Notes: a model not told the origin generated them from the sequence alone. DNA of 64,000 nt from Thalassobaculaceae bacterium (GCA_965228875.1 OZ245843.1:310001-374000), one strand, 5' to 3'. Positions 19,793-38,242 are shown, numbered from the stretch's first letter. Numbers and translations are program-made.

Positions 19793-19912
19793 GTTCATGT
19801 TGCAAGTGCGCCCCTTCTAAATCAAAATTGGGGCTTGAACGCGCCGTCAGAATCCTGCCTCTGCGCGTTCCACCGTTCGATTCTTGAAAAAATCCAGCCC
19901 TGCGAGACAGAG

Positions 19913-22678: not shown

Positions 22679-22734
22679 CCGGCGGCCGTCGTCGTGCGCC
22701 CTGTCGATCGGGTGCGCGCCGCCACCCACCGGAA

Positions 22735-23121: not shown

Positions 23122-24195
23122 ATGACTCAGATCGTTGATACGCTGATCGCCGACGGGGCCGAAGATCCGATCCCGAGCGCGGTGTTCAGTTTGGATACCG
23201 TGGCCGCGCGCGAGCGCTACGATCTGTGGCGGGACAGCATTTCCTGCATCTTCCAGGCGGATGTCGATCGGGACGTGCGGAGCGACGGCTTCTTCGCAGA
23301 GGTGGACGCGAACATGTTCGGCCCGCTCATGCTGGCCCGAACGAAGAGTCGCGAGCATCTCTGGCAGCGCACGCCGTCGATCCTGGCCCGCGATGGCATG
23401 GATCACTACATGATCCAGCTCTATGAATACGGCGAGATGGTCTGGGAGACGGACACCGGAACGCGCAGCCTGCCGAAGAACGGGCTCATGGTCATCGATC
23501 TCTCCCAGGAACTGCGCACGAAGACCTCCGACTTTCAGAACCTGTCGCTGATCGTGCCGCGTGAGATGCTCGACGGAGCGCTGAAATCGCCGAGCGACCA
23601 GCACATGAGAGTGCTTGGTGGCGAAGAACCGATGGTGACGCTGCTGCGCGATCACATGGTGTCGCTGAAGGGCCTGGCGGGGCGGATGACCCAGCAGCAG
23701 GCCATGGAGATCGCCCCGGCCACCGTGGGGCTGGCCGCGGCCTGCCTGAACGCTGCCGTCAATCAGGAGTCGCCGGCGGAGCGGGGCGGCGTGGTGTTGG
23801 CCCAGCTGACCGTGATCCGGCGGTTCATCGAGGCCAACCTTTCCGAGCCGGACCTGTCGGCGGACTGGATCGCGAAGGGCGTGGGGGTTTCCAGATCGAA
23901 GCTGTACCAGTTGTTCGATGCTTTCGGCGGGGTCGGAACCTATATCCGGGACCGGAGACTGAGGCGTGCCCTGCTCGCGCTTACGGACAACAGGTCGCGT
24001 CACCGTCCGATCTACGATATTGCGCTCGCCTCGGGGTACTCGAGCGATGCGGCGTTCAGCCGGGCGTTCCGGTCCCGCTACGGGATCGCACCGCGCGACG
24101 TCCGCAACAACGCGCATCCCCTGGATCGTATGGACAGGTATCGCGGCGACCTCGACCGTCGCTACGAACGCTGGTTGCATCACCTGTCGGTCTGA
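23122..24195 (+). CDS. AraC-family transcriptional regulator (FeaR-like N-terminal domain)
   Basis: GGAGG RBS. ERYDLWRD N-terminus, C-terminal double HTH IEANL...GVSRSKLYQLF...IRDRRL...IYDIALASGYSSDAAFSRAFRSRYG. Confidence 0.92.
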   Translation: MTQIVDTLIADGAEDPIPSAVFSLDTVAARERYDLWRDSISCIFQADVDRDVRSDGFFAEVDANMFGPLMLARTKSREHLWQRTPSILARDGMDHYMIQLYEYGEMVWETDTGTRSLPKNGLMVIDLSQELRTKTSDFQNLSLIVPREMLDGALKSPSDQHMRVLGGEEPMVTLLRDHMVSLKGLAGRMTQQQAMEIAPATVGLAAACLNAAVNQESPAERGGVVLAQLTVIRRFIEANLSEPDLSADWIAKGVGVSRSKLYQLFDAFGGVGTYIRDRRLRRALLALTDNRSRHRPIYDIALASGYSSDAAFSRAFRSRYGIAPRDVRNNAHPLDRMDRYRGDLDRRYERWLHHLSV

Positions 24196-24229
24196 GCGGC
24201 GGTCTGCCGCAGACCGAATACATCCTGAC

Positions 24230-24273
24230 CGCAAGCACGGCGGCGCCCCATGGGCGCCGCCGTTTGCGTTTCT
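24230..24273 (+). terminator. Rho-independent terminator after the AraC gene
   Basis: ACGGCGGCGCCC-cat-GGGCGCCGCCGT 12-bp stem followed by T-rich TTGCGTTTCT. Confidence 0.7.
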
Positions 24274-24517
24274 CGTGGCTGGACTGCGGCGCCGACGTCC
24301 GCCCGTCGACGTCCGCCGGTCGACGTGCTCCTGCACAGTACTCCGAACGAACGGCAAACCGGAATGAACTGGGAGGAATGAATCCGAAACGTCCGGACAA
24401 GTAGCCGGAAGACGTAACGCCATAATTCACCAGGCGCCGCGGTGCGCGAACCGAAGTCGCAAGAACCGAGTTCGCAGATTCCGGCGCTGGAAGGATTGTT
24501 GGCGGGGCGAAACCGGA

Positions 24518-25765
24518 ATGGCGATATTTCGAGAGAAGGCGCTCAAGCGGCTTTCATCGCCGGAAAACCTGGACGAGGCGCTGGTCGCGGCGTCGCCATT
24601 TCATTGGGTCGCCTTCCTCTCGGCGGGTGCGCTGGTTGCGGCCGCCGTCGCCTGGGGCGTGTTCGGCAGCGTGCCGACGCGGATCAAGGCGGACGGCATC
24701 CTGCTGCATCGCGACAGCGAGGTGTTCTCGGCCTCGGCGGAAGGGACGGGCAAGCTGATCGACGTGACGGTCGCGCTCGGCGACCGGGTCACGGCGGGAC
24801 AGGTCGTCGCCCTGTTGAACCAGGACGTCGACGAGCGCCGCCTGGAACTCCTGGTCGACAAGATGCAGAGCGCGCGGGCCAGACGCGATGCCGACGAGAG
24901 GGCGCAGCGCGAGGACAGCGTTCTCCGCGCGGACCTGATGGCGAAAGAACGTGCCTCGCTCTCCGCGAAGATCGCCAATGCGAAGGCGCGCGAGGCCAAC
25001 CTGCTTGAATTGGTCGCCGACATGCGGAGCCTGCTCAAGCGAGGGTTCATCGAGCGTTCGCGGCTCCTGGCCCGGGAAAACGAACTGATTCAGGTGCGCG
25101 AGACCATCGCGGATCTCAACAACTCCCTGGTCAAGCTCGAGGTCCAGAACCGGGAACGCGCGGAGTACTGGAGAGACCGCGTCTACGCCTCTGAGAAGGA
25201 ACTCGAGGCGCTGCACGACGAGATGGAGAACATCCGCGAGCAGCTCAAACGGGTCCAGACCGTCGACGCGCCGATCACCGGCACGGTCACGGAGATCTCT
25301 GCCAGCCTGGGCGACGTGATCGCCGCCGGAACGGCCGTGGTCCGGATCGTCTCCGAGGCGACGGAGATGGATGCCCTGCTTTTCGTCCCACCGTCGGACG
25401 GCAAGCTGATCAAGCCGAACCTGACCGCGAATATCGAGCCGACGGTGGCGAAGAAGGAGGAGTTCGGCACCATCCTCGCCAATGTCCGCAGCGTCTCGGA
25501 CCTGCCGATGTCGTCCTCGGCGATCCAGGCGATGCTGCAGAACGAGAAGCTGGTCCAGCAGTTCAGCGCCAAGGGCGCTCCGGTGGCGGTCCGTGCCGAC
25601 CTGCTCGAGGCGGGTAATGACAAGGAACGGTTCCGGTGGACCGGCGGTGCGGGGCCGAGCTTCGACATCGAGCAGGGTACCCTCGTTGCGGCGACCATCA
25701 CCGTGCGCCGTCAGCGCCCGATCACGCTGATCCTGCCGTTCCTCAAAAACCTCGTCGGCCTCTGA
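24518..25765 (+). CDS. NHLP bacteriocin system secretion protein (HlyD-type membrane fusion protein)
   Basis: IFREKALKRLSSPENLD N-terminus, single TM, lipoyl halves flanking a coiled coil, EEFGTI, QRPITLILPFLK C-terminus. Confidence 0.9.
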   Translation: MAIFREKALKRLSSPENLDEALVAASPFHWVAFLSAGALVAAAVAWGVFGSVPTRIKADGILLHRDSEVFSASAEGTGKLIDVTVALGDRVTAGQVVALLNQDVDERRLELLVDKMQSARARRDADERAQREDSVLRADLMAKERASLSAKIANAKAREANLLELVADMRSLLKRGFIERSRLLARENELIQVRETIADLNNSLVKLEVQNRERAEYWRDRVYASEKELEALHDEMENIREQLKRVQTVDAPITGTVTEISASLGDVIAAGTAVVRIVSEATEMDALLFVPPSDGKLIKPNLTANIEPTVAKKEEFGTILANVRSVSDLPMSSSAIQAMLQNEKLVQQFSAKGAPVAVRADLLEAGNDKERFRWTGGAGPSFDIEQGTLVAATITVRRQRPITLILPFLKNLVGL

Positions 25766-25767
25766 CC

Positions 25768-27927
25768 ATGGCGGCCGGTATGAAGATCGCGAACCGCCGG
25801 GTGAAGACGCCGACCGTGCTGCAGATGGAGGCGGTCGAATGCGGCGCCGCGGCGCTGGGGATCGTTCTGGCGCATCACGGCAAATGGCGGCCGCTGGAGG
25901 AGCTCCGGACCGAGTGCGGCGTGTCCCGCGACGGCTCGAAGGCCAAGAACGTCCTGTACGGCGCCCGACGCTACGGGCTGCAGGCCAAGGGGCGCAAGGC
26001 GCTGGTCGAGACCGCGCTCAACACCCCGTTTCCCTTCATCGCGTTCTGGAACTTCAATCACTTCCTGGTGGTCGAGGGGTATCGGAACGGCATCGTCTAC
26101 CTGAACGACCCGGCAACCGGCCCGCGAACGGTGACGCTGGAGGACTTCGACAACGCGTTCACGGGCGTGATCCTCGTCTTCGAGCCCGGCGAAGGGTTCA
26201 CCCGCGATCCCAAGCCGCCCGGTGTGATCGCCCGCCTGCTGCCGCGCACGGCCTCCATCCGCAGTGCGATCCTGCTGTCGGTGCTGATCAGCCTCACCCT
26301 GGTCGTGCCGGGGCTCGTGGTTCCGGGATTCTCCAAGGTCTTCGTCGACGAAGTGCTGATCAACGGCAAGGACGACTGGCTCGGCCCTCTCCTGCTGTTC
26401 ATGGTCGGAACGACGATCGTGACCGCGATACTGACGTGGCTCCAGCAGGCGGTGCTGCTTCGAACGGAGTCGAAGTTGGCACTGGCGGCGTCGGCGCGCT
26501 TCGTCTGGCACCTGATCCGCCTGCCGATCGACTTCTTCAATCAGCGCCATCCGGGCGACATCTCCAACCGCATCGACGCGAACGACAGGATCGCAGCCTC
26601 TATCGCCGGCGATCTCGGCGAGAGCCTGGTGAGTGTCGTCCGCGTGGTGTTCTACGGCGCGGTGATGCTGGCGTTCGACTGGATCCTCGCGATCGCGGCC
26701 ATGGCTCTCTCGCTGACGAACATTCTGGTCTTCCAGGTCCTGATGCGTCGCCGCGCTGACGCGAGCCTGCGCGTGCAGCAGGAGTTCGGGCAGTTTCAGT
26801 CGGCCTCTGTCACCGGCATTCAGGCGATCGAGACGTTGAAGGCCACGGGAACCGACGATGACTATTTCGAGCGCTGGGCCGGGTTCCAGGCCAAACATCT
26901 GAACAACCAGCGTCGTCTCGGGCTGTATGGGGTCATCGCCAACAGCTTTCCGCCCCTGCTGGACGGTCTGACGATCGCCGCGGTGCTGGGGCTCGGCGGC
27001 TGGCGGATCATGCAGGGCGAGATGACGATCGGCACGCTCGTCGCCTTCCAGGCGCTGATCCAGAATTTCTCCGGACCGATCAACGCCCTGGTCGCGACCG
27101 GCGGTGCGATACAGGAGCTCAACGCCGATCTGATCCGTACCGATGACGTCTTCAAGCAGGACCGCGACCGCCGGTATGCGGACCGGTCGGGTGGACAGAT
27201 CGACCGGCTGAGCGGCCGCATCGAGCTGCGCGACGTGACCTTCGGCTACAGCCGGCTCGAGCCGCCGCTGATCGAGAACTTCAACCTGACCATCGAGCCG
27301 GGCGCGCGGGTCGCCCTGGTCGGTGGTTCGGGCAGTGGGAAATCGACCATCGCCAAGTTGATGACGGGCCTCTACCGGCCCTGGTCGGGCGAGATCCTGT
27401 ATGACGGCCGGCCGTTGGACAGCATCCCCGTGTCGACCCTTACCCAGTCGATCGCCTCGGTCAGCCAGGAGATCATCCTGTTCGGCGGCACCGTCCGCGA
27501 CAACCTCAGCGCCTGGGACGAGCAGGTTCCGGCCGAGGAGATGATCGAAGCGCTCGACGATGCCCGGATTCTGGATGTCATCTCCGGCCGGGGAGGTGCG
27601 CTGGAGGCCGAGGTCGACGAGGGCGGCGGCAACTTCAGTGGCGGCCAGGCCCAGCGCATCGAGATCGCCCGCGCGCTGTCGATCGACCCGTCGATCCTCA
27701 TTCTCGACGAGGCGACCAGCGCCCTCGACGCGACGACGGAGGGCGAGATCGATGTGGCGATCCGGCGCCGTGGCTGCACCTGCGTCATCGTCGCCCACCG
27801 GCTGTCGACCATCCGTGACGCCGACGAGATCGTCGTCCTGAACTTCGGTCAGGTCGTGGAGCGTGGCAGCCACGATGAACTGGCCGAGGCCGACGGGCCC
27901 TATGCCCAGCTGATTGCGCAGGGGTGA
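25768..27927 (+). CDS. NHLP-type ABC exporter with N-terminal C39 peptidase (PCAT)
   Basis: [19 protein letters not shown] (catalytic Cys), [18 protein letters not shown] (His), [23 protein letters not shown]. Confidence 0.93.
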
Positions 27928-27931
27928 GCGG

Positions 27932-30799
27932 ATGAGCAGCGTGGAGCCGATCGACGAGACAGGCACGGTGCGCACGGTCAGCGGCCGCGACCGGATCTCG
28001 CTGTCAGCGGGACACAGTCTCCTGAGTGTCGAGCGGGGTGCGGTCAATCTGTTTATCCAGCTCACGGCTGAGGACGGCACGCCGTTGGGGGCCCGGCGCA
28101 TGATTGCCGCCCTCGAGCAGGGTGCCATGCTGCCGCTACCGGGTTGCGCTTTCGACGGCATGCGTCTGATGGTGGTCGGCGTCGGTGCCTCGGCGATCCG
28201 CCTGTTCGACGCCGATGAGCGCGACACTGTCACGGCCGATCCGGACACCTTCGTGATCGCGACGGGCATCGGGTTGGCGAGGCTGTTGCGCGACGCCGGC
28301 GGCCGGGACCGGTCCGAACATGCGGCTTTTCTGATCTCGCCCGGAGAGAGCGCCGTCCTCGCAAGTGGTACCGCGGTGTCCGCCGCCCGCCCGACGTGGA
28401 TCCTGTCCCGCGACGCCGGAACGGATCGCGACGCGTCCGACATCGCTCTGGTTGGCCCAGGCCGGTCGATCACGCTCGCCGCCGAGGGGGAACTGCGCGC
28501 GCTGGACATCGCGCAGCTGATCCGCGAGCGGGGGTGGCAGCCGGTCGATCGCTGGGTCACGGATGCCATGGTCGACGTCGCACGCGACCTGCAAGAATGG
28601 ATGGAGGAGCGCCGGCGCCGCATGGCCCGTGTGACGGAAGACGACGTTGCCCAGTTGGACAACGCCCTCGGCCGTTTGCCGGCAATCGTCAACGACGGTG
28701 CGACGCGTGCGCCGACGGTCGGGGTGCGCGGCTCCGTGCCGTCCATCGTCAGCGCACTGCGGCTGGTCTGCGAGGCCCAGCGGATCGAGTTTTCGCCGCC
28801 GGCCGAGGTGCTCGACGACCCGGATCCGGAAGTCGTGCTGCAGGATGTCCTGCGCCGGGCCAATCTGCGGTTCCGCAAGATCGTCCTGCCGGACCGCTGG
28901 TGGCGTCGCGACGGCGAGAACGCCGTCGGCTTCGATCTCGAGACCGGGGACCCGCTGGCGATCCTGCGGACCGGGTCGGGGAGGTTCGAACGGGTATCGC
29001 CGGTAGACGGCTCCCGTTCCCGCATCGGAGCCGCATCGGCCAGACGGATCGACGAGCAGGCCTTCGTGGTCTTCAAACCGCTGCCGTTCCGACCGCTCAA
29101 GGCCATGGACCTCGTCAGACATGTGCTGTCGGGGCGGGCGCGTTTCGACATGCGCTGGGCAGCCGTGCTGGCGGTGCTGACCGCGCTGCTCGGTCTGCTG
29201 CCGCCGATCCTGACCGGGCAGTTGCTGAACGAGGTCGTGCCCTTCGCCGAAGAGCAGCGGCTGATCGTTCTCGCCCTGGGGCTTGCCTTCATGGCGCTGG
29301 GAAGCGCGGCGTTCCAACTGGTCCGGTCGATCGCCCTGCTGCGGGTCGAGGCATTCGCCGACGGCGCGCTCCAGGCGGCGGTCTGGGACCGGCTGCTGCG
29401 GCTGCCGCTTACCTTCTTCCGCAGCTACGAGATCGGCGACCTGCTGATAAAGGCGATGGGACCGACACAGTTGCGCCAGGCGGTGTCCGATACCGCGCTG
29501 AGTTCGGCCCTGTCGGCGATCTTCTCGGTCGTGAACTTCGTGCTGATGATGACGTACGACTCCGCCCTCGCCGGCGCGGCCTTCGTCTTCACGCTGGTCA
29601 CCAGCCTCATTCTGCTCGGGCTCAGCCGCCTGCAGCTCCGCTTCGAACGGGTCCAGCTGAAGGCGGATGCCTCCGTCTCCAGTTTCATCATCCAGATCCT
29701 GGTCGGGATCCAGAAGATCCGCCTGATGGGGGCCGAGGACCGGGCGTTCGCGCGCTGGGTGCACCGGTTCGCGGATCAGCGTCAGCACCTGGTCCGTGCC
29801 GCCCGCATCGGAAACGCGATCCAGACCTTCAGCGTCGTTCTGCCCGTGCTTGCCAGCATCATGTTCTTCTACATGGTCGGTACCGCCGGGGAGGACCGTC
29901 TCTCCGTCGGCAGTTTCGTCGCCTTCAACGCCGCATTCGGCGGTTTCCACGGCGCGTTGCTCGGCCTGGTCTCGGCGGTGTCGGCGTCGCTGTCGGCGAT
30001 ACCGGTCTACGAGAACATGAAGCCGATCATGGACGAACAGCCGGAGCTCGATCCCGAGCGGAACCCCGCACCTGTGCTCGACGGCGGTATTCATCTCAGC
30101 AAGGTGTCCTTCCGCTACGACGAGGACGGCCCGCTGATCCTCGACGGCATCGACATGAGCATCGGAGCGGGTCAGTTCGTCGCCTTCGTCGGCCCGTCCG
30201 GTTCCGGCAAGTCGACGCTCTTCCGTTTGCTGCTCGGCTTCGAGACGCCGGAACAGGGGACCATCGGCTACGACGGGCTCGACCTCTCGCGCCTCGACCT
30301 GAAGACGGTGCGCCGTCAGATCGGCGTCGTTCTTCAGCGCGGTGCGATCCTGCCGGGGTCGATCTTCGAGAACATCGTCGGTTCCGCGCCGCTGTCCCAG
30401 GAGGAAGCCTGGGAGGCGGCCCGCATGGCGGGGCTCGACGAAGACATTCAGCACATGCCGATGGGGATGCACACCGTCCTGACCGAGGGCGGCGGCACCT
30501 TGTCGGGCGGTCAGCGCCAGCGGCTGATGATCGCCCGGGCGGTGGTGCGCAAGCCGCGCATCCTGCTGATGGACGAGGCGACCAGCGCGCTGGACAACCG
30601 GACCCAGGCGATCGTTTCGGAGTCGCTGGCCCATCTCAACGCCACGCGGATCGTCATCGCCCACCGACTGAGCACCGTGGTCAACGCCGACCGCATCTTC
30701 GTCGTCGTCGGGGGTCGTGTCGTCCAGGCGGGGACCTATGACGAGCTGATGCAGGTGGACGGCCCGTTCCGCGACCTCGCGCAGCGGCAGATTGCGTGA
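27932..30799 (+). CDS. NHLP-type ABC exporter, second (peptidase-less) permease/ATPase subunit
   Basis: Long N-terminal extension, WWRRDG motif, [27 protein letters not shown]. Third member of the NHLP export triad. Confidence 0.9.
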   Translation: MSSVEPIDETGTVRTVSGRDRISLSAGHSLLSVERGAVNLFIQLTAEDGTPLGARRMIAALEQGAMLPLPGCAFDGMRLMVVGVGASAIRLFDADERDTVTADPDTFVIATGIGLARLLRDAGGRDRSEHAAFLISPGESAVLASGTAVSAARPTWILSRDAGTDRDASDIALVGPGRSITLAAEGELRALDIAQLIRERGWQPVDRWVTDAMVDVARDLQEWMEERRRRMARVTEDDVAQLDNALGRLPAIVNDGATRAPTVGVRGSVPSIVSALRLVCEAQRIEFSPPAEVLDDPDPEVVLQDVLRRANLRFRKIVLPDRWWRRDGENAVGFDLETGDPLAILRTGSGRFERVSPVDGSRSRIGAASARRIDEQAFVVFKPLPFRPLKAMDLVRHVLSGRARFDMRWAAVLAVLTALLGLLPPILTGQLLNEVVPFAEEQRLIVLALGLAFMALGSAAFQLVRSIALLRVEAFADGALQAAVWDRLLRLPLTFFRSYEIGDLLIKAMGPTQLRQAVSDTALSSALSAIFSVVNFVLMMTYDSALAGAAFVFTLVTSLILLGLSRLQLRFERVQLKADASVSSFIIQILVGIQKIRLMGAEDRAFARWVHRFADQRQHLVRAARIGNAIQTFSVVLPVLASIMFFYMVGTAGEDRLSVGSFVAFNAAFGGFHGALLGLVSAVSASLSAIPVYENMKPIMDEQPELDPERNPAPVLDGGIHLSKVSFRYDEDGPLILDGIDMSIGAGQFVAFVGPSGSGKSTLFRLLLGFETPEQGTIGYDGLDLSRLDLKTVRRQIGVVLQRGAILPGSIFENIVGSAPLSQEEAWEAARMAGLDEDIQHMPMGMHTVLTEGGGTLSGGQRQRLMIARAVVRKPRILLMDEATSALDNRTQAIVSESLAHLNATRIVIAHRLSTVVNADRIFVVVGGRVVQAGTYDELMQVDGPFRDLAQRQIA

Positions 30800-30832
30800 G
30801 GAACAGCATGCCCGGTGAGAGGAGCATCGATC

Positions 30833-31123
30833 ATGTCGACCACGGACTCGGATCTGGATCTGGTCCTAGCGCGGCTTGCGGACGACCCGGCGTTCTTCGA
30901 GGCCTGTCAGCGGGCGACCAGGGGCCGACAGGGCGACGAGGCGATCCTGAGGTTGATGAATTTCGCTTCGGAGTCCGGCTACGAGGTCACGTTCCAGGAG
31001 GCGAAGGAGACGCGGAAGCGCGCTCTCACCCTGCAGGCCGAGCGGATGCGCGTGCTTCGCGAGGCGCTGGCCCGCGAGCGCGGCCGGGACGTTCGTCTCG
31101 AGGATTTCTTCAGGCAGTGGTGA
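30833..31123 (+). CDS. Nif11-like small protein without a double-glycine site (96 aa, ends EDFFRQW)
   Basis: GAGGAG RBS. LADDPAF...QGDEAI...ASESGYEVT resembles the downstream leaders, and it shares their C-terminal Trp motif. Confidence 0.75.
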   Translation: MSTTDSDLDLVLARLADDPAFFEACQRATRGRQGDEAILRLMNFASESGYEVTFQEAKETRKRALTLQAERMRVLREALARERGRDVRLEDFFRQW

Positions 31124-31286
31124 CGGGCCGTCACCGTCATCCGATCGATCGAGCTCGGCGGGCCGCAGGAATGCCCGTCATCCGCCGAGCCAACAGGCCG
31201 GCCGGGAAGCATTTTCCGGTTCGGACCGATGTCGACGGACGGGCGTACCAACGCTCCCGCAGGGGCGCAACCAAGAGGAGTTCAAG

Positions 31287-31733
31287 ATGACAATGCAGGC
31301 AATGGCGTCGTTTGTGGAGAAGGCGCAGCAGGATCCGGCACTGGCCGAAGAACTGGTCACCATCATCGATCAGAACGACACCGACGCGATCTATTCCAAG
31401 GTGGTGACGCTCGCCAACGACAACGGCTTCTCCGTGACCGTCGATGACGTGAAGGAGACCCGTCAGCAGTTCGAGAAGATGTCCGACGCGGGGTACGAGG
31501 GCGACATGAGCGACGACGAGCTCGACAACGTCTCCGGCGGTATCGTCGTGTCCTCGGCGGTCGCGGCCGCCATCATCACCGGTGGACTCGGCGTTGCCGC
31601 GGCGGGCGTCGGAGCGGCTGGTGCCGTCGGCGCGGCGGGTGTCGGCGCCGGTGGCGTGATCGCGGCGGCGGTGATTAAGCGCGGTATCAACAACACCGTC
31701 AACGACATCGGCAATTTCTTCAAGAAGTGGTGA
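31287..31733 (+). CDS. Nif11-like leader RiPP precursor A1 (85-aa leader, 63-aa core)
   Basis: FVEKAQQDPALAEEL...ANDNGFSVT...MSDDELDNVSGG, then an Ala/Gly/Val-rich core ending GNFFKKW. Confidence 0.9.
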   Translation: MTMQAMASFVEKAQQDPALAEELVTIIDQNDTDAIYSKVVTLANDNGFSVTVDDVKETRQQFEKMSDAGYEGDMSDDELDNVSGGIVVSSAVAAAIITGGLGVAAAGVGAAGAVGAAGVGAGGVIAAAVIKRGINNTVNDIGNFFKKW

Positions 31734-31738
31734 CCGAT

Positions 31739-31767
31739 GGCTGCGGGTGCACTCCGTACCCGCAGCC
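31739..31767 (+). promoter_or_regulatory. Intergenic stem-loop between A1 and B1
   Basis: GGCTGCGGGT...ACCCGCAGCC 10-bp stem followed by pyrimidine-rich TCCTCTTC. Conserved in the second repeat copy. Confidence 0.6.
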
Positions 31768-31797
31768 TCCTCTTCAACGCTTGCAGGGATCAGAAGC

Positions 31798-32223
31798 ATG
31801 TCCAATCAGGCAATGACACAGATGCTCGAAAAGGCTATGGCCGACGAGGGTTTCGCCCAGGGGCTTGTTGCCGCCGTCGGCGAGAAGCAGGGCGACGCGG
31901 CGATCGATGCCGTGGCCGAGTACGGCAAGGCGAACGGCTTCGCCGTCACCGCTCAGGACGCCACGGAGATGCAGCGCCATCTCATGGCGACGGCCGTTAC
32001 CCCCGAAGGCGATCTCGACGATGCGGACCTCGACAATGTGGCGGGTGGTGTCGGCGTGCTTTCGCCGTTCGTCAGCGGATTCGGCAGTGGCGGCGGCCTG
32101 AACAACGCGTTGTCGAATTGGCACATCGGCGGCGGCGTCCGTCCGCAGCCGGCCGGCCCCTCGGTCGGCCAGGCCATCGATCAGGGGCTCCGGTCGGTCG
32201 AGAACTTCATCCGGCAGTGGTAG
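31798..32223 (+). CDS. Nif11-like leader RiPP precursor B1 (84-aa leader, 57-aa core)
   Basis: ...GKANGFAVT...LDDADLDNVAGG, then a core ending ENFIRQW. Confidence 0.88.
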   Translation: MSNQAMTQMLEKAMADEGFAQGLVAAVGEKQGDAAIDAVAEYGKANGFAVTAQDATEMQRHLMATAVTPEGDLDDADLDNVAGGVGVLSPFVSGFGSGGGLNNALSNWHIGGGVRPQPAGPSVGQAIDQGLRSVENFIRQW

Positions 32224-32230
32224 TCCGCCG

Positions 32231-32276
32231 GTGTCGGCACATCGGTCCAGTCATTGTCGCAGCGATGTGCCGACAC
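32231..32276 (+). promoter_or_regulatory. 14-bp inverted repeat after B1
   Basis: GTGTCGGCACATCG-N18-CGATGTGCCGACAC. Confidence 0.55.
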
Positions 32277-32491
32277 GGGGGCTACCCGGACCGGTCCGAG
32301 AAGCCCTCTCGTGATCGTCGATGGCATGCGGACCGACTGTCGCGTCCATGCCAATCGAGCTCGGCGGGTCCAGGACATGGCCGTCATCTGATGAGTCAAC
32401 CAACCAGTCGGGGAAGCTTCTCCGGTTCGGACGATGCCGGCGGACGGGCGCACCAAGGCTTCCGCCGTGGCGCAATCAGGAGGAGTTCAAG

Positions 32492-32956
32492 ATGACAATG
32501 CAGGCAATGGCTTCGTTTGTGGAGAAGGCTCAGCAGGATCCGGAACTAGCCGACGAACTGGTCTCCATCATCGATCAGAACGACACCGACGCGATCTATT
32601 CCAAGGTCGTGGCACTCGCCAACAACAACGGCTTCGCCGTGACCGTCGATGACGTGATGGAGACCCGTCAGCAGTTCGAGAAGATGCCCGAGGGGGGATA
32701 CCAGGGCGACATGAGCGACGACGAACTCGACAACGTCTCTGGTGGCATCGCGTCGGCGGTCCAAGCCACCGGTTCACCACTCGGCAATGCTGCGGCCGCC
32801 GGTGCCGTGGGTGTCCGCACCGCTGCTATGACGTCCACGGCGATCGTTCAAGCCGCGGACTTGAGTGCAGCGGGCGCCCGCGTCGGTGGGGGCATCGCCT
32901 CGGCGGTGACCAAGCGCGGCGTCAATGACTTTGGTAGCTTCATCAAAAAGTGGTGA
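32492..32956 (+). CDS. Nif11-like leader RiPP precursor A2 (85-aa leader, 69-aa core)
   Basis: Leader 74/85 identical to A1 by manual alignment. ELDNVSGG site, core ends GSFIKKW. Confidence 0.9.
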   Translation: MTMQAMASFVEKAQQDPELADELVSIIDQNDTDAIYSKVVALANNNGFAVTVDDVMETRQQFEKMPEGGYQGDMSDDELDNVSGGIASAVQATGSPLGNAAAAGAVGVRTAAMTSTAIVQAADLSAAGARVGGGIASAVTKRGVNDFGSFIKKW

Positions 32957-32962
32957 TCGATT

Positions 32963-32989
32963 GCTGTGGGTGCGCTCCGTACCCGCAGC
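32963..32989 (+). promoter_or_regulatory. Intergenic stem-loop between A2 and B2
   Basis: GCTGTGGGT...ACCCGCAGC. The C>T change relative to copy 1 keeps pairing as U-G. Confidence 0.55.
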
Positions 32990-33020
32990 CTCCTCTCCAA
33001 CACGTCCAAGGATCAGGGTC

Positions 33021-33407
33021 ATGTCCAATCAGGCAATGATACAGATGCTCAAGAAGGCGATGGGCGACGAAGGTTTCGCCCAGCGGTTCGTTACCGCCGT
33101 CGGCGACAAGCAGGGCGATGCGGCGATCGAGGCCGTGGCCGAGTACGGCAAGGCGAACGGCTTCGCCGTCACCGCTCAGGACGCTGCGGAGATGCAGCGC
33201 CAGTTCATGGCCACGGCCGATACCGCCGAGGGCGACCTCGACGATGCTGACCTCGACAATGTGTCAGGCGGTCTCAACATGTTTTCGCAGTGGACCAACA
33301 AGTCTGGCTTAACAAACCCGCCGTCGCATTGGCAGGTCGGCCGCGAACGTCTGCAACCGGCCGGCCCGTATGCCAGCCAGGCCGGGAACTTCATCCGTCA
33401 GTGGTAG
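33021..33407 (+). CDS. Nif11-like leader RiPP precursor B2 (84-aa leader, 44-aa core)
   Basis: Leader 70/84 identical to B1 by manual alignment. DLDNVSGG site, core ends GNFIRQW. Confidence 0.88.
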   Translation: MSNQAMIQMLKKAMGDEGFAQRFVTAVGDKQGDAAIEAVAEYGKANGFAVTAQDAAEMQRQFMATADTAEGDLDDADLDNVSGGLNMFSQWTNKSGLTNPPSHWQVGRERLQPAGPYASQAGNFIRQW

Positions 33408-33529
33408 CTGGGCGGTGCGGGCATAGCGGGTCGGCCATTGCCGGAGCGATGTGCCCCACACCGGGGCGAGGCGGGCGGATCCGGCTGGCGCCCTCCTGGC
33501 CATCTATCCGATCAGGTCCCGTCGCTTTC

Positions 33530-35065
33530 ATGGACGATGAGATGAAGAGCCAAGCGCATACAGGCTCGCTGACCGACAATCGCCAGGTCCCTGACTGGTC
33601 CGGGGTTGTCGGCGGGGCATACGTGCTGACCGACCCCGCCGACCGTGCCGCCTGGGGGCGCCGGACCTTCGGGCCGGACGTCCCGGTGGCCGCAGTCGTG
33701 CGGCCGGGTTCCGCTGCCGAGGTCGCCGGAGCGCTCCGGATGGCGACGCAGCATCGGCACCCTGTCCACCCCGTCAGCCGGGGTGCGAACTGGGGCATGG
33801 GCTCGCGGGCGCCGATGCAGTCAGGGGCGGCGATCCTGGACCTGTCACGGCTTACGACGATCGAGGAGGTGGACTTCCGGCACGGCGTGGTGCGGGTCGA
33901 ACCGGGCGTAACGTTCCAGATGCTCGCCGATTACCTGACCGAGCGCGGCTCGCGTTTCTTCGTACCGGAAATCGGCGGGTCGCCGGATGCCAGCGTCCTT
34001 GCCAATGCGTTGGACCGTGGAGACGGCGCCCTGGGCGACCGGTGGGCGTCGCTGAGCGATCTGGCTGTCGTCCTGCCGGACGGCCGCGTTGTCGAGACCG
34101 GGTTCGCCGGACGGTCGGCGCATCGTCTCGCCGGTCTGCACGAGGGCGCCGCCGGTCCGGTGATCGACGGACTGTTCAGCCAGTCGAACCTTGGCGTCGT
34201 CGTGGCTGGCTGCCTTCGCCTCGAACCGATGCCGGAGAACCTCGCCATATTCAGCGTGCGTGTCGACGCGCGGGAGGCGATGCCCGACATGCTTGAGGTG
34301 CTGCGCGAGATGCAGGTCGCCGGTGCGGTGCGCGACCGGTCGGTGACGCTGTGGAACGGCGTGAAGTTCCTGGCTCGCGAGAATCCACGGGTCCGGTACG
34401 ACGAGAGCGCAATCCGGCAGGCGGCGACCGAGACATGGATGATGTCCGGCTACCTCCAGGGCGAGACCGAGGCCCTGCTCACCCAACGCGGCAACTGGGT
34501 TCTGGAGCGTTTCGCCGCCGGCGGCATGCAGGCGGACGCCAGTCTGGTTCGCATCGGCGGCCAGTGGCTCGACGGATGCGACGGTCTGCTCGGCAGCCCG
34601 AGTCCACGCAATCTGCGCACCGCCTACTGGAGCGAGGACGGTATTCCAGAGGCCGAGGCCATGGATCCGGACGCCGACGGTTGCGGGCTGCTCTGGCTTT
34701 GCATCGCGTTTCCGTTCGACGGGGAGGTCGTGGCGCAGTTCGCGCTGCGGGCGGCGACCATCCTCGGGCGCTACGGAATCGACTTCAACTTCGGTGCGGA
34801 AGCCGTAAGTTTTCGCTGTCTGCTGTCCTACGTGAGCATGTCGTATCGACGGGACGGCCCGGACGACGACGCGTGTGCAGTCGAGGCCTACAGCGCCGTA
34901 CTGGAGGAGGCGGAGGCGATGGGGCTCGCTCCGTACAGGTTGGCGAACGGTCTGGCGAGAAGCTGCCGGTCGTATCCTGATCCTCTGGACGACTACCTGG
35001 CCGCGCTCCGCCAGGTTGCGGATCCGGCGGGGATCCTCTCGAAAGGCCGTTCCGGTATCGGCTGA
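33530..35065 (+). CDS. FAD-binding oxidoreductase, VAO/p-cresol methylhydroxylase flavoprotein family
   Basis: VSRGANWGMGS, LDLSRL, VEPGVTF..L, SVLANALDRG, GPVIDGLFSQSNLGVV, C-terminal PYR and DPAGILSKGRSGI. Start could also be 33542. Confidence 0.85.
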   Translation: MDDEMKSQAHTGSLTDNRQVPDWSGVVGGAYVLTDPADRAAWGRRTFGPDVPVAAVVRPGSAAEVAGALRMATQHRHPVHPVSRGANWGMGSRAPMQSGAAILDLSRLTTIEEVDFRHGVVRVEPGVTFQMLADYLTERGSRFFVPEIGGSPDASVLANALDRGDGALGDRWASLSDLAVVLPDGRVVETGFAGRSAHRLAGLHEGAAGPVIDGLFSQSNLGVVVAGCLRLEPMPENLAIFSVRVDAREAMPDMLEVLREMQVAGAVRDRSVTLWNGVKFLARENPRVRYDESAIRQAATETWMMSGYLQGETEALLTQRGNWVLERFAAGGMQADASLVRIGGQWLDGCDGLLGSPSPRNLRTAYWSEDGIPEAEAMDPDADGCGLLWLCIAFPFDGEVVAQFALRAATILGRYGIDFNFGAEAVSFRCLLSYVSMSYRRDGPDDDACAVEAYSAVLEEAEAMGLAPYRLANGLARSCRSYPDPLDDYLAALRQVADPAGILSKGRSGIG

Positions 35066-35113
35066 GCGGCCGTCGAAGGCGCCGGTCGGGCCCCATGCGC
35101 GGTTGTCGGCGGT

Positions 35114-36550
35114 TCAGTCCTGGAAATAGCGGTCGCCCGTGGTGGCGAGGCCATACCATCGGTCGCGAACCTCGCGGTAGTGCCGGTCGTAATCGTAGTA
35201 GTCGACGGGCAGGGCGAGGTCCTGTGCGGTCAGCCGTCCCATCGCGGCGAGAAGCTGGTAGCCGGACACCAGGACGTCGTAGCGCGCGCGGACCAGGCGG
35301 ACCTGACCGTCCAGCAGGGACTGCTCCGCGTCGAGGACGTCGAGGACCGTCCGGGCCCCGACCGCCGCCTCGCTGCGAACGCCTTCCAGCGCCAGCGTTG
35401 CCGCCGATATCTGCGTCTCCAAGGCGTCGATCTGAGACAGATTGCCCTGCAGCGCCTCGAAAGCGTTGGCCGCCTCCTCTCGTGCCGACCGGAGCTGGTC
35501 GATCGCGGTGAAGCGCAGCCGGCGGAGGTTCTCGTGGGCCTCCCGGGCCTTCGAGGAGGCGATGCCGGACTGGTACAGCGGCACGGAGAGCCGCAGGGTG
35601 GCGGTCGCGGCCCAGTTCAGGTTGTCTCCACCGCCGGAATTTTCGGCGCGGCTGACATCGGCCACGAGATCGAGGGATGGCAGCAGGTCGGACTCCGCCG
35701 CGTCGAGCTGATGCGCGGCGGCAGCTTCCGCGAAACTGGCCTGGATCAGGGCGAAGTTGCCGTCTGTGGCTGCATCGACCGCCGCGGAGCGGGTCTCCGG
35801 CAGCGCCGTCGGCAGTGTCGGAACCGTAAGCTGGCCGGGAATGCTGCCGATGACGCGCTCGTAGGTGACGCGGGCCTGTGCCAGGCTGGCTTCGGCCTGC
35901 CGTACGTTGGCTCTTGCTTCCGCGACACTGGCTTGCGCCTGGGCGACGTCTGTGCGGGTCAGGTCGTCGACCTCGAAGCGTGCCGTCGTCGCCTCCAACT
36001 GCCTGTCCAACCGGTCGAGATTGTTACGCTGCAGGCTGAGTGTGGCCGACTCGCGGATCACCGTCATATAGGCCGTGACGGCCGAGATGAAGGTGTCCTG
36101 TTCGGCCCGGAACAGTGCCGCGCGCTGGGACTCGATCGTTGCGTCCGCAGCTTCGACCTTCGCTTCGACCCGGCCGAAGGTATAGAGCGGTTGGGTCGCC
36201 TGCAGCGTGAGGTTGGTCGGATAGGAACTGTTGCTGACGGTGTAGCCGTTCGACGTCTGCTCCACTGAGGTTGCGCCGACCGATCCCGACGCGTTGACCT
36301 GCGGGCGCCAGCCGCCGAGCGCCTGGGGCGACAACTCGTCGGTCTGTCGCAGTTGCGCCCTCGCGGCGATCAGCGCCGGATTGCCGACATACGCGCGGAC
36401 CAGTGCTTCGTGCAGCGTCTCCCCGGCTGCCTGTCGCCACGGGACGATCAGCGCGATCGCCGCCAGGGACACGATCGTCAGGGGACGAAGGCTGGAACGG
36501 AGCGGCAGAGTAAGGCCCGCCCTGAAGAGCATCGAATACAGGTTTATCAT
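35114..36550 (-). CDS. tolC: TolC-family type I secretion outer-membrane channel
   Basis: Signal peptide then ETLHEAL..AY..NP, TRTDVAQAQA, VPLYQSG, VGARTVLDVLDAEQ, LLAAMGRLTA. Confidence 0.92.
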   Translation of the reverse strand: MINLYSMLFRAGLTLPLRSSLRPLTIVSLAAIALIVPWRQAAGETLHEALVRAYVGNPALIAARAQLRQTDELSPQALGGWRPQVNASGSVGATSVEQTSNGYTVSNSSYPTNLTLQATQPLYTFGRVEAKVEAADATIESQRAALFRAEQDTFISAVTAYMTVIRESATLSLQRNNLDRLDRQLEATTARFEVDDLTRTDVAQAQASVAEARANVRQAEASLAQARVTYERVIGSIPGQLTVPTLPTALPETRSAAVDAATDGNFALIQASFAEAAAAHQLDAAESDLLPSLDLVADVSRAENSGGGDNLNWAATATLRLSVPLYQSGIASSKAREAHENLRRLRFTAIDQLRSAREEAANAFEALQGNLSQIDALETQISAATLALEGVRSEAAVGARTVLDVLDAEQSLLDGQVRLVRARYDVLVSGYQLLAAMGRLTAQDLALPVDYYDYDRHYREVRDRWYGLATTGDRYFQD

Positions 36551-36708
36551 GACGGCAGGAAATATTAATCAAATCTAAGCCGCAATATCCGGACATCCGC
36601 GCAAATACTGATTTGGATGTGGTGCACGGAATCAGGAACGTTGGGGCTGAGCGGCGCTTTGACGTTGTGCCCAGAGGGGAACGGACGGTCCGAGTTCCCG
36701 TGCCGACG

Positions 36709-37992
36709 TCATCGGCGCGGTGTCTGCCCGTGGTTGGCGGGAGACAGGAACGCGGCGCAGATCGCGGCGCAGATCGCCAGGGTCATGAACACCTGGAGCG
36801 ATGCCGAGTAATCGCCTGTCCAGTCGCGCAGGACGCCGGAGAGGACCGGGCCGATCGCCTGCCCCGTCACCTGGACCGATAGCGCGACGCCGCGGATGGC
36901 ACCGAAGCTCTCCCGGCCGAACCTGTCGGCCCAGGCGATGGGCGGGACGGTGAGCAGACCGCCGATGCCGCATCCGAACAGGGCCGACGCGAGGAAAGCC
37001 GTCGCCGGTCCGTCGACCGTGATCATCAGCCAGCTTCCTACCGCCAGGAACCCGCCGACGGCGACGAGCACGCCTCGGGTGCCGAGGGGTCGGACGAGCG
37101 GGCCCACCAGGAAGCCGACGAGCCCTGACATCGCGGAGAAAGTGCTGACCACGAACGCGGCGGTAGTCGGATCCAGACCCCGCTCGACGAGGTGCGGAGC
37201 CTGGTGGAGGCTCACACCGGCCTGGACGGGGTAGGCGAGAAACGTGAAGGTCAGGAGCAGCCAGAAGGCCGGCTCGCGCATCGCTTCGGCCCGGGAGTAG
37301 GAGGGTTGCGGAACCGCCGCGCCGTCCCCGTGCATCGCGGCGCCGTCCTGACCGGGCGTGCCGCCGTCGGGCTCCTGGCCCAGATCCTCGGGCCGACGTG
37401 CCAGTAGAAACACCGTCGGCAGGAAGCCGACCACGAGAACGGTCGTGCCGACGGCGACCCAGCCCCATCGCCAGTCCCCCGCCAGGTGGATGGCGCTATG
37501 GGCGATCAGCGGCATGGCGGTCAGGCCGATCATCAGCCAGAGCGTCGAGATCGACGTCGCTATCGGCCGCAGGCGTACGAACCAGTTGTTGATCGCGCCG
37601 TAGATTCCGAGGTCGAACGGCCCGGCGAAGTTCATGCGCGCGATGCAGAACAGAACGTAGAAGGCGACCAGCGACTCGATCCCGGAGAGCGCGATGCAGC
37701 AGATTCCGGTAACCGCCACGGCCCAGATCAGGATGCTTCGGGCGCCCTGCCGGTCGACCAGCGGACCGAGGCCGGGCGACACCACGGCCGCCAGGAGGCC
37801 GCCGACGGAGACCGCCGCCGAGATCGCCGTCCTGGACCAGCCGAGCTCGCCTGTCATCGGGTCGACGAAGATCGAGAGCGTGGCGACCGCCGGGCCCTGG
37901 CGTGCGAAGCTCACGCAGCAGACGACCCCCAGCACCACCCAGCCGTAGTAGAACGACAGGCGATCGGCGAGAAGTCCCGGCAACCGCGTCAT
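36709..37992 (-). CDS. MFS transporter (OFA/MCT-like)
   Basis: FYYGWVV, WSRTAIS, GPLVDRQGAR motif A, NWFVRLR, ADRFGRESFG, multiple TM segments. Confidence 0.88.
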   Translation of the reverse strand: MTRLPGLLADRLSFYYGWVVLGVVCCVSFARQGPAVATLSIFVDPMTGELGWSRTAISAAVSVGGLLAAVVSPGLGPLVDRQGARSILIWAVAVTGICCIALSGIESLVAFYVLFCIARMNFAGPFDLGIYGAINNWFVRLRPIATSISTLWLMIGLTAMPLIAHSAIHLAGDWRWGWVAVGTTVLVVGFLPTVFLLARRPEDLGQEPDGGTPGQDGAAMHGDGAAVPQPSYSRAEAMREPAFWLLLTFTFLAYPVQAGVSLHQAPHLVERGLDPTTAAFVVSTFSAMSGLVGFLVGPLVRPLGTRGVLVAVGGFLAVGSWLMITVDGPATAFLASALFGCGIGGLLTVPPIAWADRFGRESFGAIRGVALSVQVTGQAIGPVLSGVLRDWTGDYSASLQVFMTLAICAAICAAFLSPANHGQTPRR

Positions 37993-38035
37993 CGACGGCG
38001 GCCCCGGGACGGGCTCGGCGGTGGTCCGCCCGGCG

Positions 38036-38242
38036 TCATGTCGGGGTGTTCTTGGCGGCACCCGGTACCCGGCTCCGACGGCCCCGCATGTAGTTCGCCG
38101 CCGGGACCTCCTGAATGATGACGGTGATGCCGTCCAGGGGCGCGGCGATCGTTTCCGTCACCGCGTCGGTAAGGCGCTCGCTGAGGGTCTGGCGCGTCGC
38201 CTCGTCGTAGCCTTGCATCAGAGTCACCGTGATCACCGGCAT
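38036..38242 (-). CDS. 4-oxalocrotonate tautomerase-family protein (68 aa)
   Basis: GGAGG RBS. Met-Pro start (catalytic Pro1) MPVITVTLMQG...LTDAV...ITVIIQEV. Confidence 0.82.
   Translation of the reverse strand: MPVITVTLMQGYDEATRQTLSERLTDAVTETIAAPLDGITVIIQEVPAANYMRGRRSRVPGAAKNTPT

Follow-up and report, generated by a model that had tools for sequence, protein, structure and literature searches.

A VAO/PCMH-family flavoprotein encoded with tryptophan-ended double-glycine peptides in a Thalassobaculaceae bacterium, a candidate decarboxylase of C-terminal tryptophan

What, if anything, modifies the products of a locus that encodes Nif11-like leader peptides, a dedicated exporter and a single flavoprotein? 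The question is raised by positions 23,122 to 36,550 of a 64,000-nt window, the whole stretch of DNA analysed (Thalassobaculaceae bacterium, GCA_965228875.1 OZ245843.1:310001-374000; positions count from its first letter, and features lie on the forward strand unless stated otherwise). An initial annotation had read this region as an NHLP-exported cluster resembling those of peptides that are ribosomally synthesized and modified post-translationally (RiPPs), with maturation by the flavoenzyme and/or by enzymes encoded elsewhere. The key feature absent from that account is the C-terminal residue: Trp is the last residue of all five small proteins (N0 to N4), within the motif F-[FI]-[KR]-[KQ]-W. 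The best overall reading, which we regard as an even prospect, is that the flavoprotein would decarboxylate this Trp, giving an indolyl-enamide, after which the peptide would be cleaved and exported; as part of this explanation, and with equal reserve, the locus would be a self-contained unit making, modifying and exporting double-glycine-leader peptides.

The small proteins were compared with a custom leader profile, which was started from N1-N4 and improved with sequences of related loci, and with the curated model TIGR03798 (cut-off 32.3 bits). In the complete 4.96-Mb genome the custom profile matched exactly N0-N4 and nothing else (E 1e-28 to 2e-11), in agreement with the five Nif11-like open reading frames (ORFs) annotated initially, whereas the curated model was passed by N1 and N3 only. 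These two are Nif11-leader precursors of type A: N1 (31287..31733; 36.5 bits; PF07862) has G-G followed by a 63-aa Gly/Ala-rich core ending in NFFKKW, and the core of N3 (32492..32956; 34.5 bits) ends in SFIKKW. The Nif11-like precursors of type B, with cores ending in NFIRQW, are N2 (31798..32223; A-G-G site; leader profile E 1.1e-28; 20.2 bits with TIGR03798, below its cut-off) and N4 (33021..33407; 44-aa core; leader profile E 9.5e-28; 15.2 bits, likewise below, and no match in the hmmscan). The cleavage site D-N-V-[SA]-G-G is present in N1-N4, and reading of their translations bore out the claim of four Cys-free cores. N0 (30833..31123; 96 aa, ending in DFFRQW; leader profile E 2.2e-11) lacks the G-G site and gave no match to TIGR03798; its homologues of ~93 aa, ending in FLKQW, are the first small gene in 3/3 Nisaea loci. 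N0, although it has the Nif11-like part, is thus uncleavable, yet its C-terminal motif and position are conserved, and a non-exported substrate, a regulator and an immunity protein are candidate roles.

N1-N4 are arranged as a tandem duplication of a 1.2-kb two-gene unit (31148..33455; N1-N2, then N3-N4), with direct repeats 1184-1223 nt apart. The 300-nt leader-coding blocks of the two units are 87-91% identical, compared with 76-78% for the core-coding pieces. This alternation of N1/N3 type A (Gly/Ala-rich, hydrophobic) with N2/N4 type B as duplicated pairs suggests a putative two-peptide bacteriocin-like system.

The association between enzyme and terminal Trp was evaluated across relatives of the flavoprotein (33530..35065; VAO/PCMH-family FAD-binding domain PF01565, E 1.4e-21), our proposed maturase for the C-terminal Trp. 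An alignment-based scan of a species-representative genome collection yielded 583 confirmed relatives, whereas a single-protein query scan for related loci had returned none. The best 80 of the 583 were taken as the set of related loci, with up to 10 kb fetched on each side and genes called by our own simple ORF procedure. Complete 11-gene synteny, AraC regulator and TolC included, was found in three of the 80 loci, all from Nisaea (3/3 Nisaea loci), and a match resembling the Peptidase-C39/permease/ATPase ATP-binding cassette (ABC) exporter, or PCAT, was found in 22 (E <= 1e-100). The iterated leader profile gave 40 matches across 16 of the loci, which belong to Nisaea, another alphaproteobacterium, nine cyanobacteria, two Acidobacteriaceae and an unclassified metagenome-assembled genome (MAG; L019) whose enzyme is placed in the tree with cyanobacterial enzymes. 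Of these matches 39 are small ORFs, and all 39 end in Trp; as background, Trp is the final residue in 2.6% of the 22,776 stop-to-stop ORFs that the 80 loci contain. Thirty-five of the small ORFs carry G-G, one has A-A-G and three are N0-like. When 38 precursors were aligned, mean column identity was 25%, and invariance was confined to Met1, one Leu, G-G and the final Trp. The C-terminal Trp is therefore the sole core residue common to the flavoprotein-adjoining double-glycine peptides of three phyla, the cores being otherwise hypervariable.

Twelve further alphaproteobacterial loci (nine of Azospirillum type, together with L023, L057 and L063) encode the enzyme, a PCAT and an HlyD adaptor alongside a protein of 336-387 aa, which has a short G-G leader and ends in KKMKKW, AFKGW, FFHGW or AFHHW. 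The leader type thus differs (Nif11 or short G-G) between locus groups while the terminal Trp persists, and substrates with unrelated leaders point to an enzyme that would read the C-terminal motif. In all, a candidate Trp-ended substrate was present in 30/80 loci and absent from 50/80. In a quick tree, the window's enzyme grouped with the three Nisaea enzymes (support 100) within an alphaproteobacterial clade of 17, all of them Trp-associated. Comparative genomics of this kind lends support to the initial proposal of the flavoenzyme as maturase, its relatives adjoining double-glycine Trp-ended peptides in three phyla, and on these sequence comparisons we consider an enzyme-substrate link between flavoprotein and peptides to be probable. 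Furthermore, the precursor profile was searched against 1.84 billion cluster-representative proteins, giving 11,398 matches at E <= 0.001; 71 of the best 150 end in Trp, mostly as [FL]-[FVL]-x-[KQG]-W, a count favoured by the terminal motif that the profile itself includes.

Several members of these loci have features of their own. The 336-387 aa proteins (L010 5774-6868; homologues in L011-L017, L021, L023, L057 and L063) are rich in Gly, Ala, Ser and Thr, have repeated amphipathic C-terminal segments and show weak apolipophorin-III-like matches (E 0.001, below cut-off). The one leader-profile match that is not a small ORF comes from an Acidobacteriaceae MAG (L054 9767-11455), in which ~60 residues in frame before the flavoprotein align with profile positions 1-58 (E 3e-12); either a genuine fusion or the remnant of a fused leader could account for this Nif11-like stretch. 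Two Myxococcota loci encode Trp-ended proteins beside Tyr-type enzymes, one of 401 aa ending in IFSGW (L055) and one of 438 aa ending in WFSSW (L028 6478-7791, a Kofleriaceae MAG); the latter contains eCIS_core PF13699 (E 1.4e-21) and lies 1.9 kb from the flavoprotein. Two of the four loci of this clade have such a protein, the two share no similarity, and these uncertain candidates may be due to chance.

A cyanobacterial sample was used as a control. Among 301 genomes, 14 carry 15 family matches (E <= 1e-40; G001 has two), and 43 have a precursor-profile match (E <= 1e-6). Thirty loci, fetched for the best cyanobacterial precursor matches, contained 63 complete leader matches. All five leader peptides adjoining an enzyme end in Trp, beside two Leu-type enzymes (G001:C46 and G037:C17), and none of the five located elsewhere in enzyme-bearing genomes does so. 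In 12 further cyanobacterial enzyme loci, from which the match of G141 at the end of a 1.7-kb contig was left out, the residue at position 90 of the enzyme is Tyr (10) or Ile (2), and a leader-profile match was found in 0/12.

By domain, sequence and fold the flavoprotein is a member of the VAO/PCMH family's 4-phenol-oxidizing subgroup, which is described in PMC7617285. Its closest solved relatives by sequence are nsVAO (9FGE/9FFK; E 2.3e-46 for 9FGE over the full length), VAD, PCMH, EUGO (eugenol oxidase) and VAO. An AlphaFold model (pLDDT 89.7, pTM 0.89) was matched to VAD, PCMH, EUGO and VAO with TM scores of 0.80-0.84. NCBIfam release 20.0 contains no specific model for the flavoprotein, the top match being GlcD at 34.9 bits (cut-off 567.9). 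Covalent attachment of the flavin in this subgroup is through His in oxidases and through Tyr in dehydrogenases.

Position 90 was equated with PCMH Tyr95 and VAO Tyr108 through alignment offsets to solved structures; Y108F and Y503F mutants are named in PDB titles. The window's flavoprotein has Met90 at this position, so that the phenolate-binding triad (VAO Tyr108, Tyr503 and Arg504) is incomplete, and the Tyr503/Arg504 equivalents are present as Y469/R470 (R470 in 79/81 family members). Cys385 is found in 80/81, in a loop D383-G-C385-G that aligns with G-G-G of nsVAO. Position 90 is Leu or Met in 29/29 enzymes adjoining G-G/Trp substrates; it is Tyr in 24/24 Bryobacteraceae enzymes, in L038, in the enzyme of L084, which adjoins and follows a non-ribosomal peptide synthetase (NRPS) gene, and in 4/4 of a Myxococcota clade. 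The residue at the VAO Tyr108-equivalent position therefore appears to track substrate context, with Leu/Met beside Trp-ended peptides and Tyr beside acyltransferase-like or NRPS genes.

The Tyr-type context is best represented by the 24 Bryobacteraceae-type enzymes, which follow a conserved ~280-aa protein matching Acetyltransf_5 in 7/24 and FeeM in 6/24 cases, all below the Pfam cut-offs. In Bryobacteraceae and Solibacter the ~280-aa protein (L035 8968-9807 and 23 homologues), with its weak likeness to GNAT, FeeM and autoinducer synthases, nearly always precedes the Tyr-type flavoprotein, and nearby proteins have PEP-CTERM-like C-termini by eye. The arrangement resembles a pathway to N-acyl-tyrosine enamides that soil Acidobacteria very commonly have (3127 relatives at E <= 1e-20). 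These family contexts, beside an NRPS gene (L084) and beside weakly GNAT/FeeM-like genes, recall those of CndG and FeeG, respectively.

FeeG and CndG provide the model for the chemistry proposed here. According to section 5.2.1 of the review PMC11350588 and to the hyellamide paper PMC11959600, they belong to the VAO/PCMH 4-phenol-oxidizing subgroup and convert an N-substituted tyrosine to a hydroxystyryl enamide by oxidative decarboxylation via a quinone methide; in that same section of the review, VAO/PCMH decarboxylases are given only for fatty-acyl and polyketide synthase (PKS)/NRPS products, and HFCD enzymes for RiPPs. With this precedent the proposed flavoenzyme chemistry is not without a model. 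FeeG, CndG and HyeB (WP_144872799, named in PMC11959600), oxidative decarboxylases that turn N-acyl-tyrosine into enamides, share the flavoprotein subgroup with the window's enzyme, for which the same kind of substrate is proposed: an aromatic amino acid, N-acylated, whose carboxylate is free. Unlike theirs, the proposed substrates here are ribosomal peptides and proteins that end in Trp, not Tyr, and the equivalent of the phenolate-binding Tyr is Leu or Met.

In the proposed pathway, the AraC-type regulator would control an operon encoding the adaptor, the C39 ABC exporter, the second ABC subunit, the five small proteins and the flavoprotein, which would be cytoplasmic. To the flavoprotein the precursor would be an N-peptidyl-tryptophan whose carboxylate is free, handled in the way that FeeG and CndG handle N-acyl-tyrosine. 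A hydride would pass from the Trp beta-carbon to flavin adenine dinucleotide (FAD), and the indole would stabilize an alkylidene-indolenine intermediate corresponding to the quinone methide. Loss of CO2 would then leave the C-terminus as a 2-(indol-3-yl)vinyl-amide, an enamide, and the mass is predicted to change by -46 Da. The C39 domain would then cleave after G-G, and the core would exit through ABC, HlyD and TolC. Whether decarboxylation is the chemistry we judge to be an evenly poised question. A requirement for the free carboxylate would explain why Trp is strictly last, a feature that decarboxylation predicts and plain side-chain oxidation does not. We extend this, with somewhat less than even confidence, to a widespread and undescribed class of ribosomal natural products in which a VAO/PCMH flavoenzyme would decarboxylate C-terminal Trp, having been recruited from N-acyl-tyrosine lipid and NRPS pathways by a change of the phenolate-binding Tyr to Leu or Met, and would act on Nif11 peptides as well as on the 336-387 aa secreted proteins.

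Rather unlikely, in our estimate, is an action of the flavoprotein on the C-terminal Trp by other chemistry, such as beta-hydroxylation, ketone formation, alpha,beta-dehydrogenation or a nucleophile-trapped cross-link. The association of the enzyme with Trp-ended peptides fits such reactions equally well, the solved subgroup relatives hydroxylate or dehydrogenate benzylic carbons as described in PMC7617285, PCMH and VAO oxidize alkylphenols, and Cys385 is retained with no role assigned to it. Side-chain oxidation alone, however, needs no terminal Trp, yet Trp is last in every enzyme-linked peptide, and the cross-link variant finds no second conserved core residue as a partner.

Decarboxylation of a C-terminal Trp can also be set beside other end-group modifications. 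SrpI is described as a flavin-dependent enzyme that brominates the C-terminal Trp of SrpE, a proteusin (NHLP) precursor. Like the precursors described here, SrpE combines a G-G boundary and a variable core with a long structured leader and ends in Trp, the residue on which its flavoenzyme acts. SrpI is a two-component halogenase of another family, which depends on a flavin reductase and adds bromine to the indole ring; no halogenase was found among the proteins of the window's cluster. The proposed loss of the carboxylate with formation of a C=C bond beside an amide nitrogen likewise resembles what is described for RiPP HFCD flavoproteins (EpiD/LanD, CypD and TvaF) and the radical-SAM enzyme MftC. 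These belong to unrelated enzyme families and differ in their substrates, C-terminal Cys for HFCD enzymes and Tyr for MftC, compared with Trp here. C-terminal Trp is reportedly epimerized by MslH and is said to be prenylated by PalQ and ComQ. The literature searched contained no description of a flavoenzyme/Trp-ended-peptide system of this kind.

Several observations weigh against decarboxylation of Trp by the flavoenzyme. The literature searched contained no VAO/PCMH enzyme acting on ribosomal peptides, on Trp or on an indole side chain. Clade membership with FeeG, CndG and HyeB is one that we infer from subgroup and context only, and the family tree is a quick version. An acidic residue aligned by eye with VAO Asp170, an equivalence that itself depends on that alignment, is not conserved in the family. 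Position 90 is Leu in 17/17 Polyangia-clade enzymes and in four others with no detected substrate, and around these 21 Leu-type enzymes no Trp-ended G-G peptide was found within the fetched flanks, as was also the case for L039. Furthermore, in cyanobacterial genomes without the enzyme (E <= 1e-40), 16/53 Nif11-like peptides in the fetched loci end in Trp, and 14 of these 16 sit in three LanM loci, two of which also encode 2-oxoglutarate (2OG)-Fe(II)/JmjC oxygenases. Terminal Trp on Nif11 peptides is thus not exclusive to the flavoenzyme and could serve another purpose.

The three LanM loci are notable in themselves (L117 11791-14768 in G200, L118 11022-13922 in G180 and L119 9050-11733 in G052). 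In each, 4-6 Nif11-leader peptides with the ending K-[IP]-K-W form an array that adjoins a LanM gene (DUF4135 and LanC-like); L117 and L118 also encode a JmjC protein and two 2OG-Fe(II) oxygenases, and L119 an aldo-keto reductase. Most cores of these arrays are Cys-free (one of four seen in G052 has Cys), which is odd for LanM substrates. No VAO-type enzyme was found in genomes G200, G180 and G052 at E <= 1e-40, and the terminal Trp may be handled there by another oxidase.

The Trp-ended peptides of enzyme-free genomes also bear on another alternative, slightly more doubtful than other chemistry on the C-terminal Trp. Here the products would be bacteriocins, two-peptide or class II microcin-like, that carry no modification; the aromatic motif at their end would help in inserting into membranes, in binding a receptor or in resisting carboxypeptidases, and the flavoprotein would be unrelated or accessory. 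Gly/Ala-rich, Cys-free cores in alternating A/B pairs would suit such products, as would the weak match of N3 to the CTB-bacteriocin model NF038167 (E 0.006, below cut-off). Class II microcins and class IIb two-peptide bacteriocins generally have a G-G leader, export by PCAT, adaptor and TolC, Gly-rich hydrophobic cores and paired genes, all of which recur here; unlike them, the window has Nif11-domain leaders of ~85 aa, no recognized immunity gene and a conserved flavoenzyme. Against an accessory flavoprotein, its gene stays beside Trp-ended G-G substrates in three phyla despite changing cores and leader types, Trp endings are missing elsewhere in the enzyme-bearing cyanobacterial genomes, and the change at the Tyr108-equivalent position goes along with the association. 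A scaffold role, with the terminal Trp oxidized on the peptide and then released as a Trp-derived small molecule in the manner of PEARL/ammosamide logic, appears very improbable: hypervariable cores with the last residue alone fixed, and an N0 that keeps the motif without a cleavage site, would fit it, but the 12 locus proteins scanned included neither a protease for release nor a tRNA-dependent ligase, the dedicated G-G-cleaving exporter and TolC speak for core export, and the Azospirillum-type substrates are secreted proteins of 336-387 aa.

Decarboxylation by the flavoenzyme was then weighed against the maturation routes usual for NHLP systems. The N11P family of NHLP/Nif11 precursors, as described by Haft, Basu and Mitchell (2010), combines hypervariable cores with a G-G site and long leaders derived from Nif11, all shared by N1-N4. 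Unlike that family, which the same source ties to LanM or cyclodehydratases, the locus has neither, and its cores are Cys-free and share a terminal Trp. The word 'tryptophan' is absent from the main text of Haft et al. (2010), and neither 'tryptophan' nor 'FAD-binding' occurs in the available part of Wang et al. (2011). A domain scan of the 12 locus proteins found no LanM, YcaO or radical-SAM domain, confirming that no such maturase lies inside the locus. The whole-genome check for LanM and YcaO that had been recommended gave no match to LanC-like PF05147 in the complete genome at E <= 0.01 and a single YcaO gene (1,578,342-1,579,298), ~1.24 Mb from the locus. Maturation by enzymes encoded elsewhere is less needed on these two results, the survey of radical-SAM enzymes having covered the 12 locus proteins. 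A lanthipeptide was rejected, with no LanC-like gene in the genome and no Cys in the cores; a thiazole/oxazole-modified microcin (TOMM) or other YcaO-dependent RiPP was set aside given the distance of the sole YcaO, and a halogenated SrpE-like product given the lack of a halogenase in the locus. A periplasmic PCMH-like cresol enzyme was also set aside, there being no adjoining cytochrome subunit gene and no signal peptide by eye. The names FeeG and CndG did not appear among the 240 matches listed in two protein searches (120 each), all of which were named generically, for instance 'FAD-binding oxidoreductase' or '4-cresol dehydrogenase'.

If true, decarboxylation of C-terminal Trp by this flavoenzyme would add to ribosomal peptides an end-group modification and a maturase family that are both new, and would be the first case of such end-group chemistry on whole exported proteins. 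It would link the tailoring of N-acyl amino acid lipids and NRPS products with leader-peptide natural products, fields so far separate. A flavoprotein with Leu or Met at position 90 beside a Trp-ended gene provides a mining rule that retrieves loci from Alphaproteobacteria, Cyanobacteria and Acidobacteriota. Should the enzyme recognize little beyond the C-terminal Trp across leaders, it would also be useful for tagging peptides and proteins at the C-terminus.

The remaining genes of the locus constitute its regulation and export. ORF listing and profile scans placed the AraC, HlyD, C39 ABC, second ABC, flavoprotein and convergent TolC genes where they had been annotated. All three curated models of the NHLP export triad exceeded their cut-offs: the HlyD-type periplasmic adaptor (24518..25765; TIGR03794, 251.1 bits, cut-off 156.2), the PCAT (25768..27927; TIGR03796, 1011 bits, cut-off 853.3), in which residues 14-141 are Peptidase_C39 (E 2.7e-30), and the second ABC exporter subunit without a peptidase (27932..30799; TIGR03797, 847.6 bits over residues 272-954, cut-off 709.4). 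The recommended search with TIGR03794/03796/03797/03798 thus held for the export triad, and for two of the five small ORFs in the case of TIGR03798. The N-terminal extension of the second ABC subunit (residues 1-271; 27932-28744) had no Pfam match at E <= 1. The TolC-family outer-membrane channel (35114..36550; TIGR01844, 302.5 bits, cut-off 225.15) is on the reverse strand, convergent with the operon.

The AraC-family transcriptional regulator (23122..24195; PF12833 HTH_18, E 5.8e-15) is followed by a weak terminator-like hairpin with a 12-bp stem and 11 G-C pairs (24237..24263). A promoter and terminator scan of the region gave 0 promoter-like and 6 terminator-like sites compared with a mean of 6.3 in shuffled sequences, and the hairpin is weak evidence because this count is no higher than in the shuffles. 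Over its full length the regulator resembles the FeaR model NF007243 (108 bits, below the threshold of 199). FeaR is the regulator of aromatic amine catabolism, and it is conceivable that the indole end group gives rise to a ligand of the window's regulator.

Finally, the distribution of the locus was examined. The flavoprotein gene is single-copy in the genome and was found in 0/10 other species of the genus and in 1/24 other genomes of the family (62% identity), a patchy distribution that indicates an accessory locus. No island border could be drawn from flank comparisons: the left flank (21400-22700) had a full-length match in 0/10 of the genus's other species, where a single 26-base match was all that appeared, and the right flank (36700-38000) matched in 3/10 at 81-82%. 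The gene to the left (19835-22678), whose 3' part is the stretch matched in 0/10, resembles an aconitase B type enzyme by eye, and the gene to the right (36709-38061), matched in 3/10, encodes an MFS transporter; variability may thus extend beyond the cluster itself.

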